In this document: piece after piece, positions 210-58,300 of the stretch | Layout of the letters: every line of letters starts with the position of its first letter | How positions within the stretch are numbered: position 1 is the first letter of the stretch | Assembly (NCBI GenBank): GCA_963693365.1 | Contig: CAVNZM010000002.1 | Location: 13,611,615-13,675,614 of the forward strand | DNA length: 64,000 nt | Reading direction: 5' to 3' | From: Amoebidium appalachense | Taxonomy: Eukaryota; Protista; Ichthyosporea | Translations under genes and position numbers: made by a program | Notes under the pieces: generated by a model | Told to the model about the DNA's origin: nothing | The model's database searches: none | The model's input: only the letters and a program-made list of their open reading frames with translations

Positions 210-3200
210 GAGTGATGCGGACAATGTAACAGGGAGCAGCAACGACACCAACTGCCCGACCATCAGCACCAGTGGGAGTAATCTTACGCAGGGATTCCAG
301 ACCGGCACAGACAGCACGGCCATGGTGACCACAGCTATAGGTCTGACCACAGAGCTGGCATGTGCTGCACCCGCTGCAAGACGTAACTGCCCCCCCCCCC
401 CCCCCCCCCCCCCCCCCCCCCCCCCCCAAAAAAAAAAAAAAAAAAAAAAAAAGAAGAAGAGAAAAGAAAAGAAAGAAAAAGAAAAGAAAAGAAAAGAAGG
501 AAAAGTCCAATTGCCCCGCCTTTAACCTCAAAGTAGGCACGACTCCCACCCCCAACCCCATCCTCCCCCCTCCTTCCCTCCCCCTGCCCCCCCCCCCCCC
601 CCCTTCGTTCCCCCCCCCCCCCTCCCCCCCCCCCCCAAAAAAAAAAAATGAAACAAATGAAAAAAGCCCCACAAAAAACAAAAACCGACTCTCCTTTGGC
701 CTCTAATGCATGTACGACTCATACCTCCTCCCTCCCCCTCCCTCCCCCCCCCCCCCCCCCCCCCCCCCCCCAAAAAAAAAAAAAAAAAAAGAAAGAAAGA
801 AAGAAAGAAAAGAAAAAATATAACAAAGAAAAAGAAGAAGAAAGAATGAAAAACACCAACCCATACACACCCTCTCAAGAAGAAATTTGAAGTTTAAGGG
901 ATAGGGCATAGTTGTGTAGGGCAGGGAGGGGAAAAAAGGGGAGTGGGGGGGGGGGGGGAGGGGGGGGAGAGGGGGGGATTCAACATAAACAAAGGAAGAG
1001 TGGATAAGGAATGGCGTAGAAAGAGCCCGGCTTTTCTCTTTCCATCTCACTGCACATGCCCACAGCATTACATAGAAAACATGCAGAGTGTAGGGAAAGT
1101 TACCAGGGCATGAATTACCAAACCCCACTCCATTTAAGCTCACCCATCTCCCCCACCCACCCACCCACACAGACCAATCCAACACCGCCACCGTCTACAC
1201 TGAAAAAGACGAGCAGGGCTATTTCCAGACCATCACCCTCGGGGGCCTGAACACATTCTCAGCCATTATCAACCAGACAAGAGCGGTGGGGGTGTGCGTT
1301 GCTACAGCCGAAATTTTCACCGGACCAAACTACTCCGGCTCATCGTACATTCTGAGCTCCCCTCAAGCATGTGACCTGTATAACCTGGATGGTGTGTTTG
1401 TAACCTTTTGCCCCTCCCCCCCCCCCCCCCCCCCACACACACACACACACACACATACACACACCCTCTTCCCTCTCCCCCCCCCCCCCCCCCCCTCTTC
1501 CCCTCGGCGGCTTCCATCCACCGACTCCTCCGAACCCGTCTCCTGTTCTCTCTCTCTCTCCCCCTCTCTCCCTCTCTCCTTCTCTCTCTCTCCCTCCCTC
1601 CCCCTCCCCCCCCCCCCCCCCCCCCTCTTTCTCTCCCTCCTTCCCCCCTCTCTCTCACTCCCCCTCCCTCCCTCTCCCTCTCTCTCTCCCCCCCCCCTCC
1701 CTCTCCCTCTCCCTCTCCCTCTCTCTCTCCCCCTCCCTCCCTCCCTCTCCCTCTCTCCCTCTCTCTCCCTCTCTCCCTCTCCCTCCCTCTCTCACTCTCT
1801 CTCTCACTCTATCTCTCTCTCTCTCTCTCTCTCTCTCCCCCCCCCTCCCCCCGACCTGCTGCCTTCATGGCTTTTGCCGTCCTTCTTCCATTCTTCTTTA
1901 TAAGTAACTACTATATTCTCCCCCCCTTCACCCCCCCCCCCCCCCCCCCACCCCACCCCCCCTTCTCTGTCTCCTTTCTCCCCCCTCTCCCCCACTTCCT
2001 TCCCCCCCCCCCCCCCTCTCTCTCCCCCCTCCTCTCTCTCTCTCCCCCCCCCCCTCCCCCCCCCCCCCCCCCCCCCCCCAAGGATGGGCTTTGCTGATTT
2101 TGCTACTCTCTATGTGTGGTTTGCACCCTGCATTGTGTTGTCCGCTGTGAATGTGTACGTTGTACTATACTGCGCATTCAACCTCAACCTCCCCCCTCTC
2201 TCGTGTTGTTCTGACCAGCCCCCCTACCCCCCTCACCCCCCTTCCCCCCCCTCCCCCCCCCCCCCCCCCCCCCCCCCCCCCCCCCCCCCCCCCCCCACAC
2301 ACACACACACAAAAAAAAAAAAAAAAACAAAAAGGCACGACTGGGCCGGCTGTGAGCATCGGGTCAATCAGTGTGACCCCACCACTCGTCCAAAAGCTAT
2401 CACGTAAGTGTCATTCCAATCACACACTCCCCATATATCATTTAAATCACACACCCCCCATTTATCATTTAGCCCCCCCCCCCCCCCCCCCCCCCCCCCC
2501 CATCTATCATTTAAATCACACAACACCCATATGCCATTTAAGTCAAACAATACCCACGTATCACCTAAATCTGACGTCCCTTATGCCGTAAAAATTGCAC
2601 ATCCCACACTTGTCATTCAGATCGCACGTCACCCACATAGTATCATATACAGCTCGAATCACCCAAATGATTCACTATTCACTTGGAATTGTACATACAA
2701 ACCAGGCTCTCTCATGTTTTTCATATTAGTTTCAACCGCCCTCTTCCCCCCCCCCCCCTCCCCCCTCTCCCCCTTCTCTCCTCACCCCCCCCCCCCCTAC
2801 CCCCCTCCGCCCCTTTCCGCACATTTTTTGATTCTCCCATCGTAACAATCTTGGCCAATTGTTTCCCTTCCCTCTCACTTCCCTTTGAACAATTCCCGTT
2901 AACTACTAACACGCTCTCTTCGCACTCCGCCATTCATACGTAAAGCAAGTGTAAACACATAGGCACACACAAACGAACACACATTCAAAAGCACGAATAC
3001 ACATACACACACACGCACGCGCGCGCGCACACACACACACACACACACACACACACACACACACACACACACACACACACACACACACAGTCACCAGCAA
3101 AATGGTTACAGTGTCCTTTCCGGGGGGTACCTCCTACGGTGCACTTTCAAAAACCTTTGACGGAAGCAGGCAGTATGCGACAAATAGGTGCTGGGGAACC

Positions 3201-55300: not shown

Positions 55301-58300
55301 GAAGAAGGGGGGGAAGGGAGGGGGGAGGGGGGGTATGTGTGCATCAAAAGCGTGGCACACCTGGAATCGAGGACGTCAGAGAAACTACGAAGACTGAAAA
55401 GCAAAACGGGTGGGGGAGCCGCGGGGGGGGGGGGGGGGGGGGGGGGGTGGGGGGGTTTGAATGCGTCAAAAAGTACGAAGTACACAAGAACAAACGGATA
55501 ACACGATGCAGAATGCAAGCCATACATAAAGAGTATGCATAATAAGCAGAGCCCATCCTCAGGGGGATAACAGAAATTTAAGGCGTGTGTGAATAAGAAC
55601 AAAAATTTACGGTTCAGTTACTGTAAGCTTTGTACAATATAATTGCGCCTGAGTGTTTCATTCTTTTCACACACATTCCTCCATTATTACACACACAATT
55701 TTGGTATGCTTGATGATATTGCGTGTCACGGGCATGAGGGTGGGCTCTCTTGTCTCTTCCCCCTCCCCCCCCCCCCCCCCCCTTTTTTTTTTTTTTTTTT
55801 TTTGGGGGTGGGGGGGGGGGGGGGGGGGGGGGGGGGGGGTCTACAAACCCAATGTGGTCCAAAAGGTAGCCTGTAAGAAGAGTAAAGGGGGATTTCTTTT
55901 CTTTCAAGGGGGGGGGGGGGGGGGGGGGGGGGGGGCAACACACCAGCTACATTTTTTGCAATTTGGAGCAGGGCCGGAACACTGAGACTGGAACGGGTAC
56001 GATGAAGAGAGGCGGAGAAAACATTGGATGCTACACCGTAGCATGAGATGCGGCCTGTGTGTGTGTGTGTGTGTGTGTGTGTGTGTGTGTGTGTGGGTGG
56101 GTGGGTGGGTGTGTGGGTGGGTGGGTGGGTGGGCGGGCGGGCGGGCGGGCGGGCGTGCGTGCGTGCGTGCGTGCGTGCGTGCGTGCCTGCGTGCGTGCGT
56201 GCGTGCGTGCGTGCGTGCGTGCGTGCGTGCGTGCGTGCATGTGCGTGCGTGCATGTGCGTGCGTGCATGTGCGTGCGTGCGTGCGTGTGCGTGTGCGTGT
56301 GCGTGTGCGTGTGCGTGTGCGTGTGTGTGTGTGTGTGTGTGTGTGTGTGTGTGTGTGTGTGCATATGTGTGTCTCCATGTGTGTGTGCATACATAGGTTG
56401 GTGGTGAGGATAGGGGGGGGGGGGGGGGGGGGGGGGGGGAGTTGGGGGACATTTAGCTGGCTCGTGGTGTGTTTCTTTTGCAGTAGGTGGTTGCCCAAAA
56501 AAAAAAAAAAAAAACCCCCCTAAAAAAAAAAGACATTGCATGCTTACGCATCGCTTCAGGTTTTCATGGTGGGGTTAGCTCTGTGAATAGAAAGTTAAAG
56601 TATCAAGACTGGATGTGAATCACCGAGATTTTTTTTCGGTTGGTGAGTGTATGTGCTATACTACCGGATTATATTATCTGCCGACATAAATGCATCGCTT
56701 TCGAGCCTATGGCAGGGCATACCGACATTCTACACACATTTGATAGCTTATGATCCACGGTCACCATTTTTAGACTGCACACGTATGGCTTAAATGAGCT
56801 ACCATTAAAACTTGTGATCCTATCCATTCGAATTAGCCTAAGTATTACTTCAAATAAACCGCGGAATTAATCCTCTGGGTGTGGCAGAACTCCTTGTTAC
56901 CTTCTTTGACCTCCTCCTCCAGATAGGCAAAGGCATCCCTCACATGTCCGTACCAGCCATCCACTGAAACCTGCATCAAAGCCGTTACAATCCCAACCCT
57001 CTTCCCCCCTCTCCCTCCCAGATCTCCCTACCTACTTTCCTTTCTGCCCCCCCCCCCCTCCTCCCCTTCCCCCCCCCGCCCCCAACACACACACACACAC
57101 ACACACATACACACACACACACACCTCTCCGGTAAAAAAAAGGGGCAGAGGAAGACAAAGAAAATGGAAACAAAAGAAAGAAAGGAAAGAAGAAGAAAAC
57201 ACCACAATATCATTCCAGTGTTCCTTATTTCATTTTCCCTGTGGTACTTTGTGTTTCTTCCCCAAATTCTCTTTACTAATTCGCTCTCCCTTTCCCTCCC
57301 TCTCCCCCTTCAACACAAATACACACTCTCTCCCTCCTCCCCTCCCCCTCCCCGTCCCTCCCCCCCCCCCTCCCCCCTCCCCCTTCCCCCCCCCCCCTCC
57401 CCCTCCCCCCCCCCCCCCCCCCCCCCCCCCCCCCCCTGTCTCTCTGGCCAACCCCGACTCACCACCCAATCTTCCCCACTCACAGCCACACACAGACACA
57501 GAAAAGTGACAACAATTTCCCTACCTTTCTCATTCTTTTCTTTTTTTTTTTTTTTTTTTTTTTTTTTTTGATTTGTTTATATTACTTTTATTTTTGTTTT
57601 TATTTGTGGGAGGAGGGGAGGGGAGAGAAAGAGAGAGAGAGAGATTATACCTGTTGGTCTCTCAGAGCTGTCTCCGGGTTATTGAGCCAATAGACATCGA
57701 GGGAATCCACATTCATACGGTCGAGTGAAGACTCGAGAGAACGGCAGAGAAGGTCGGGGGATAGACTGTGCCACACCTTGTCTGATACCACCGTCTGTGT
57801 GGGTGGTGGGGTGTGTGTGTGTGGGGGGGGGGGGGGGGGGGGGGGGGGGGGTTAGAATGTGTAGAGTGTAAGAAGTACACATCCATGGCAGACAATTTTA
57901 CAATGCAAACTTTGCAGGGGGGAACGGGGGGGGGGGGGGGGGGGGGTTAGAATGTGTAGAGTGTAAGAAGTACACATCCATGGCAGACAATTTTACAATG
58001 CAAACTTTGCAGGGGGGAACGGGGGGAGGGGGGGGGGGGGGATTTGGGGGGGAAGAATGGAAGGGTTGAAGAAGGGGGGGGGAGGGAGGGGGGGGGGGGG
58101 GGGGGGGGGTTGGATGTAGAAAGGTGAGTGTGGACTCTACCCGTACATAGGTGTATGTAATATGATGTCGATCGGGTAAATCTCGTGTGTACATGTGCAA
58201 ATGAAGATGTGGGAGGGACGTTGAAGAAGGGGCGGGGGGAGGGTGGGTGGGTGGATGAAAGGGGGGGGGGGGGGGGGGGGGGGGGGGGGGAGTGTGTGCA

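Follow-up and report, generated by a model that had tools for sequence, protein, structure and literature searches.

A 5'-truncated, C-tract-flanked repeat family lying sense to its host genes in introns of Amoebidium appalachense, a probable retroposon

The stretch of DNA considered here, called the window, comprises 64,000 nt of contig CAVNZM010000002.1 (assembly GCA_963693365.1) of the ichthyosporean Amoebidium appalachense. Short copies of a dispersed repeat family lie in the introns of its four modelled genes: the 3' part of a gene termed G1, a sorting nexin (SNX), a ceramide-kinase-like gene (CERK) and an aldo-keto-reductase-like gene (AKR). The gene models hold 58 introns, with 45.6 kb of intronic and 6.8 kb of exonic sequence, and ~11.4 kb lies outside genes. 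For SNX, a 383-aa PX-domain protein from Amoebidium parasiticum (EukProt) maps exon by exon onto 12441-25187 (+), matching the exon 17640-17771 at 100%; the transcript-derived protein also fixes a GC donor at 13451 in intron 2. In AKR, two introns with CT..AC ends are joined out in contigs of runs X6 and X9. The open frame of G1, AKR and CERK exons 5-25 was threaded through AG/GT sites after three small shifts, and the uncertain exons 1-4 of CERK contain no copy. As background, a paper on the genus describes a 202 Mb genome, about 50% of it transposable elements (PMC11244446), and intron gain is reported in ichthyophonids, with no introners named in the available part of that text (PMC5560861).

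The original prediction named 12 copies and held that the family is found only in introns and always sense to the host gene. All 12 are present at their places and on their strands. A profile hidden Markov model (HMM), seeded with 11 of the copies named earlier, was searched over the window; owing to the seeding, the E-values of the copies in the seed look better than they should, and the reversed window, used as a control, gave a best match of E 1.5. Four copies outside the seed were recovered (Table 1). Three of them (16779, 40708 and 53698, all with E below 1e-5) had been listed as weaker fragments, and one (39918-39785) is new; a further weak fragment, placed near 4890, reaches only noise level (E 0.064). 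The solid set comprises 16 copies, which represent 15 insertion events in 11 introns of the four genes, as the pair at 57852/57947 is a 63/63-identical tandem and is counted as one event. All 16 copies are intronic and sense to the host gene, in + and - genes alike, so the sense rule stands for the solid set. Noise-level matches were excluded: 4892, 53969 (E 0.5, and E 1.7 in a second scan), 37928, 17371 and 5195 in sense, 41772 (E 0.61) and 17865 (E 7.5) in antisense, and 7365 (E 13) between genes. The solid set itself has no antisense or intergenic member.

A pattern made of the 3' end and a C-run was also matched 16 times in the window, eight of the matches being new; 15 are intronic and sense, and one lies on the + strand just upstream of the SNX start. 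As this pattern demands a C-run, its matches inherit the strand bias of the tracts. Bare remnants of the 3' end, about 10 nt long and followed by C-runs, were seen at 12294 (+) and at 35933, 36105 and 36149 (-); the remnant at 12294, upstream of the SNX start, is perhaps within an intron of the 5' untranslated region.

The copies share a common 3' end, are variably truncated at the 5' end (48 to 281 nt) and usually end at C-tracts, as had been described. The family is longer than first described, reaching at least to 17045 and beyond. Over 16915-17405, contig depth stays high past the start given earlier, as far upstream as 17051. Each of three DNA runs has 24-34 contigs that extend upstream of 17045 with a common T-rich sequence, and a second upstream branch departs at 17077. 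Since the contigs continue upstream of 17045, no copy in the window is of full length, and two upstream motifs taken from contig ends are absent from it. No terminal inverted repeat is present at the ends of any copy in the window, all of which are 5'-truncated, and no tRNA, 5S or 7SL head of the RNA polymerase III (Pol III) type was found in 17037-17345, the true 5' end lying beyond the window copies.

Two subfamilies are nearly identical internally, A copies agreeing at 105/109 positions and B copies at 174/177 and 130/131, while A and B agree at 137/197. The recent spread proposed earlier is borne out by this likeness of 96-99% within subfamilies and by a very high contig depth. The CTAAC-type 3' end, likened earlier to a branch point, is present in only 4/16 solid copies and missing from the remaining 12/16, including the two young subfamilies, which end in TTCAA(A). 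Within the 3' end of subfamily A lies a T5 run, which speaks against termination of a Pol III transcript at that end.

A long hairpin is present in 3/3 copies that cover it and folds better in sense than in antisense (z -1.1 to -2.2); its covariation does not stand out from shuffles (149 of 500), and the same is true of a 4-bp stem near the 3' end. Whole copies fold with z -0.69 and -0.29. In local scans, Rfam gave no credible family for the element; among 150 of 179 matches listed, the whole window showed two tRNAs and many low-complexity miRNA matches. The model Hammerhead_1 was matched only in part (E 1.8, model positions 14-38, without the CUGANGA side), and not at all in a subfamily B copy. 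A core motif had 0 matches in metagenome and viral contigs, and a gapped pattern met five metagenome loci, a chance-level number, none with an HMM match.

Table 1. Genes, repeat copies and associated features in the window
Feature	Coordinates	Strand	Remarks
G1, 3' part, 7 exons, frame of last exon without Pfam match	210..6983	+	hand model
SNX, sorting nexin (PX domain), 14 coding exons	12441..25190	+	transcript-derived protein maps exon by exon
CERK, ceramide-kinase-like (DAGK_cat), exons 1-4 uncertain	26410..47970	-	hand model for exons 5-25; tblastn support
AKR, aldo-keto-reductase-like, 16 exons	50005..61339	-	hand model and contig junctions
Truncated copy	2081..2181	+	after C-run; G1 intron 2
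Weak 3' fragment, noise level, outside count	4892..4920	+	HMM E 0.064; absent from second scan
Degenerate copy	16779..16893	+	SNX intron 7; unseeded HMM E 4e-7
Left target-site duplication, six C and 13 nt	17030..17048	+	flanks 17045 copy
Subfamily A copy of 281 nt, the longest, also 5'-truncated	17045..17325	+	SNX intron 7
Long hairpin with G.U pairs on sense strand	17144..17200	+	kept in the 3 copies covering the region
Small 4-bp stem-loop ~17 nt before 3' end, possible recognition signal	17298..17308	+	paired in 86% of cells; covariation no higher than in shuffles
Right target-site duplication, exact 19-nt match to left	17326..17344	+	flanks 17045 copy
Truncated copy	23810..23942	+	SNX intron 12; end 78 nt before acceptor; native branch-like site 19 nt from acceptor
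Older truncated copy	27766..27872	-	CERK intron 23
Subfamily B copy flanked by C23 and C20 runs	31015..31207	-	two thirds of CERK intron 18
Older truncated copy	36176..36266	-	CERK intron 12
Diverged copy of hairpin half, absent from earlier list	39785..39934	-	CERK intron 8; unseeded E 2e-6
Degenerate copy after donor-proximal C-run	40613..40708	-	CERK intron 8; unseeded E 5e-8
Subfamily B copy	42375..42521	-	CERK intron 6; 130/131 to 55299
Short 3' fragment between C27 and C22 runs	53651..53698	-	AKR intron 11; unseeded E 7e-6
Weak fragment, noise level, outside count	53915..53969	-	E 0.5 / E 1.7
Truncated copy inside C-tail of 55299 copy	54857..54983	-	AKR intron 8; end 65 nt before acceptor
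Subfamily B copy, 232 nt; possible 14-nt duplication, one mismatch	55067..55299	-	AKR intron 8
Subfamily A copy, 105/109 to 17045	55456..55566	-	AKR intron 8
Head-to-tail pair of identical 3' fragments split by C-run	57852..58007	-	AKR intron 5; last ends 57 nt before acceptor

Upstream of the copies, a run of C5 or more occurs within 25 nt in 10/16 cases (a count in which 4892 stood in place of 39918), against 8.7% of intron positions. Because tracts are found upstream as well, the C-tract looks like an insertion target in addition to a tail; the suggestion that the element seeds the C/G tracts of the genome is, therefore, unneeded, even if each insertion does duplicate part of a tract. The copy at 17045 is flanked by an exact 19-nt target-site duplication (17030-17048 and 17326-17344) that starts in the C-run. 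Only 184 of 29,890 C-run pairs have 13 matching letters after the run. The last four letters of the left duplication also begin the family match, an overlap that is likely to be microhomology. One copy (54983) sits in the C-tail of another. In run X11, a unique contig (55547-55720) aligns only from 55562 on, its first 15 letters being unmatched, which is a hint of an empty site in a strain without the copy at 55456-55566.

In the loose ends of contigs, poly-C follows the 3' end in 173 (X11), 59 (X5) and 70 (X1) contigs, and C-runs are joined to more than 10 different internal positions of the element, a low-grade observation since joints with short sides at 80% likeness often stem from repeats. 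Summed contig depth is 0.4-1.3 million on the repeat and 15-31 on unique flanks, a sum that is no copy number and is read as an order of magnitude only. Together with the local density of 16 per 64 kb, it suggests a genome-wide copy number of the order of 10^4. Repeat depth in X6, presumed to be an RNA run, cannot show independent transcription.

A C-run of eight or more lies within 40 nt of the donor in 25/58 introns, and a G-run of that length in 3/58; these donor-proximal C-runs are possibly a splicing signal or a mutational bias.

The restriction to introns and the orientation have different standing. Although all solid copies are intronic, P for this is 0.023 when judged on length and rises to 0.2 when judged on the tracts available (17 events), most C/G tracts (164/180) being themselves genic; the intron-only rule is, therefore, weak. 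As for orientation, tracts away from the copies number 93 with C in sense and 48 in antisense, and 64-67% of the intronic ones are sense. The two strands of the element also differ in their splicing signals. Over 15 copies (1,973 nt), there are 13 YAG triplets in sense and 71 in antisense; sites that pass an acceptor matrix built from 54 introns number 3 and 21, and those with a branch-like motif upstream 0 and 9. Sense YAG counts fall below those of base shuffles in 7/7 copies (P 0.005-0.08). This asymmetry makes selection against antisense copies plausible. Antisense Alu elements are likewise reported to be depleted near exons via cryptic acceptors (PMC3088655).

A fixed 3' end, a ladder of truncations, a target-site duplication and a match between homopolymer and target are the usual traces of target-primed reverse transcription. 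The common 3' end, the truncation ladder, the flanking C-tracts and the duplication seen here are the marks of such retroposition into (C)n. It is thus proposed, with a probability of about 0.58, that the family is a high-copy, 5'-truncated, C-tract-flanked one that spreads by target-primed reverse transcription, with poly(C)/poly(G) tracts as its targets, and that its sense orientation results from strand-biased targets together with selection against antisense copies. The earlier idea of a poly(C)-tailed retroposon resembling a short interspersed element (SINE) survives as a recently active, 5'-truncated retroposon with C-tract ends, which the duplication, the ladder, the subfamilies and the depth point to; the SINE part finds no Pol III head in the 281 nt seen. 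A short non-autonomous element is favoured over the 3' end of a long element, with a lean of about 60:40.

In the proposed course of events, RNA polymerase II, assumed in view of the T5 run of subfamily A, would make an RNA copy that ends in C's. A putative reverse transcriptase-endonuclease, of the long interspersed element (LINE) or Penelope-like kind, would nick the G-rich strand of a tract, and the end of the G-run, by analogy with poly(A) elements, would pair with the C-tail of the RNA and prime the cDNA. Synthesis would often halt early, closure occurring on short homology, and part of the tract would be duplicated. With C-tracts two thirds sense in introns and clustered after donors, most copies would land in sense; antisense copies, which would bring many CAG/TAG acceptors, some of them behind a branch-like motif, would be purged.

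Several observations weigh against this proposal. Only one duplication is clear among the 16 copies; two or three are imperfect, and the others are pure C-runs or none, so the search for target-site duplications proposed earlier has yielded one exact case. No reverse transcriptase or endonuclease was found among the 107 open reading frames of the window, which cover the intergenic and long intronic stretches, and the partner enzyme is a postulate. The contig joints and the summed depth carry the limits given above. The bias of the tracts alone leaves P about 0.001-0.003 for the 15 events and 0.007-0.013 for the 11 introns. The sense bias thus exceeds that of the tracts and is real in the window; it is partly inherited from the host tracts and not fully explained. 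Selection may be too weak to close the gap, as the antisense YAG density of 6/7 copies matches the expectation from base composition, the level in masked introns is already 18 YAG per kb, and SNX intron 8 retains a 730-nt insert with 31 YAG per kb. Because of the relatedness of the copies, the YAG tests lack independence, and only four genes were examined.

The main rival keeps the same retroposon and moves the origin of the bias to the moment of insertion. It assumes that an enzyme cuts the G-run of the template strand in transcribed genes, perhaps at the C-tracts that follow donors, and that the element is expressed only as a passenger of the host intron. This is unlikely, although it has the most to be said for it among the alternatives. 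All 15 of 15 events are sense, above the 64-67% of the tracts; in 7/16 solid copies, the start is no more than 140 nt from a donor; YAG is scarce on the sense strand, which fits long residence in introns; and no Pol III-type head occurs in the 281 nt seen. Nevertheless, selection against antisense copies predicts the same pattern, the clustering near donors follows the tracts themselves, and one antisense match exists, at noise level (41772, E 0.61). A coupling to transcription or splicing, as originally predicted, fits the sense bias beyond the tracts, and selection against antisense acceptors could equally give it. A bolder form, slightly more doubtful still, sees an intron-adapted retroposon without a promoter of its own: it would ride the host pre-mRNA on an acceptor-cleared strand, its partner would insert it strand-specifically at the C-tracts of transcribed genes, often after donors, and element and tracts would amplify each other and so shape the introns of Amoebidium. 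It appears very improbable that mere chance in a small sample of four genes produced the orientation. Only 11 introns in four genes are at hand, and the copies nest in each other's tails, so the events are not fully independent; yet P is 0.007-0.013 even per intron, and + and - genes both obey the rule.

Other explanations concern the nature of the element itself. A functional, intron-encoded structured RNA family, spread in the manner of snoRNA retroposons and kept only when sense, would account for a long hairpin retained in 3/3 covering copies and folding better in sense, and snoRNA retroposons are often sense in introns (PMC1687206). It is improbable, as Rfam offers no match, inspection by eye showed no conserved ACA or C/D boxes, the fold z is only -1.1 to -2.2 and the covariation does not exceed that of shuffles (149 of 500). 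Moreover, 13/16 solid copies are without the full hairpin and yet all are sense, contrary to what function predicts; the earlier suggestion of an intron-encoded RNA family is not favoured.

Helitrons are marked by a CTRR end, insertion at A|T and no target-site duplication. A DNA-level element, either Helitron-like or produced by template switching between G/C tracts, is rated a shade lower than the RNA family. Four copies do end in CTAA, and tracts occur on both flanks. However, a duplication is present, the young subfamilies are without CTRR, neither an A|T target nor a terminal inverted repeat is seen, and the hairpin depends on the G.U pairs of one strand. A Helitron was thus rejected on the duplication, the C-tract target and the presence of CTAA in only 4/16 copies; a miniature inverted-repeat transposable element (MITE) or other terminal-inverted-repeat transposon was rejected because the ends of the copies, which are 5'-truncated, show no inverted repeat.

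The least probable of all is an introner remnant, or a portable branch-point module kept for splicing, both of which had been suggested. In favour of the module, the end of 4/17 copies falls 57-78 nt from an acceptor (P 0.035, the range of distances being chosen post hoc). In the last 100 nt of AKR introns 5 and 8, no YTRAY occurs other than the CTAAC of the element, which may act as a branch site there. For the family as a whole, the module does not hold: the CTAAC end is missing in 12/16 copies, native YTRAY sites lie at a median of 19 nt from the acceptor, 23/58 introns have no YTRAY in 100 nt, and two of the four near-acceptor copies have a closer native site. The ends of the copies are never at splice sites, lying at least 40 nt from the donor and at least 57 nt from the acceptor, which speaks against an introner.

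Among known systems, the proposed retroposon is closest in behaviour to the Chlamys Penelope-like elements, which have a (C)n target, are 5'-truncated, come with non-autonomous derivatives and for the most part carry no hammerhead (PMC8557442). Chlamys and derivatives such as MRC1 share with it the insertion into (C)n, the frequent 5' truncation and the duplications hidden in the tract, as well as head-to-tail partial copies and the lack of a canonical hammerhead (PMC8557442). The partial-tandem feature may be represented in the window by the one identical pair at 57852-58007, which could also be a local duplication. Ichthyosporeans are not among the hosts of Chlamys given in the available text, which are green algae, spike mosses and a slime mould, and no orientation bias relative to host genes is reported in it (PMC8557442). 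Derivatives of Chlamys/Naiad elements are marked by insertion at (C)n or (CA)n and by a partner that combines an N-terminal GIY-YIG, a CxC motif and a reverse transcriptase. In contrast to Chlamys, no reverse transcriptase or GIY-YIG partner was found in the window, and no pLTR is definable. The family would work like Chlamys elements, its kinship to them being one of analogy.

Non-autonomous retroposons mobilised by LINEs have a fixed 3' end, a homopolymer tail that matches the target, a target-site duplication and subfamilies, and the family resembles SINEs and other such retroposons in all of these. It differs in having C/G in place of A/T in tail and target, a T5 run within the 3' end and no tRNA, 5S or 7SL head in the 281 nt seen. 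Alu elements likewise show a sense excess near exons, attributed to cryptic acceptors in antisense (PMC3088655); the bias is total here and slight in Alu. The snoRNA retroposons are also short, structured retrocopies with duplications, often sense and intronic, but they copy known snoRNAs and have A-rich tails (PMC1687206), whereas no Rfam match exists here and truncated copies are equally sense. Non-LTR retrozymes are short, non-autonomous repeats for which the use of Penelope-like machinery has been proposed; they contain hammerheads, occur in tandem and are kept out of introns (10.64898/2026.07.22.740005), while the present family is intronic and lacks a hammerhead core in register. An introner makes up an entire intron and is bounded by its splice sites; introners too are intronic repeats sense to the gene, and the copies described here lie inside existing introns.

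Other features of the genes were also observed. Exons 5-6 of G1 (4668-5543, +) encode a cysteine-rich stretch, which presumably resembles a hevein-type chitin-binding motif. CERK intron 13 contains two near-identical tRNA-Thr genes, sense to the gene (34844-34915 and 35069-35140, -; anticodons CGT and TGT), and CERK intron 4 a MITE-like, 274-nt imperfect palindrome (77%) at 43614-43887. The 730-nt insert of SNX intron 8 (17780-18509) is MITE-like, with 21-nt inverted ends (19/21), and SNX intron 12 holds a minisatellite (21440-23330) in which a unit of ~45 nt alternates with long CA runs. Local tandem duplications with units of 60-100 nt, 73-84% alike, occur at 8954-9152, 42993-43215 and 45972-46210.

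In the literature searched, which did not extend to figures and repeat libraries, there is no description of this repeat family or of Penelope-like elements in Amoebidium. The available parts of the supplements contain no mention of Penelope or SINE (PMC11244446) and none of Amoebidium (PMC8557442). The family may already be in an automated repeat library as 'unknown'. The mechanism proposed for it belongs to an ordinary class, while its target is uncommon and its strand bias not fully explained. The (C)n target has so far been reported for Chlamys elements of other lineages, as far as the available text goes (PMC8557442); if genome-wide counts agree, a C-tract-targeting retroposon would be present in a close relative of animals. 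The C-tracts that follow donors in 25/58 introns are a feature of the host with a possible role as a splicing signal. Given some 10^4 copies and comparable strains, it would become testable in Amoebidium whether the orientation bias of a retroposon is set at insertion or by later selection.

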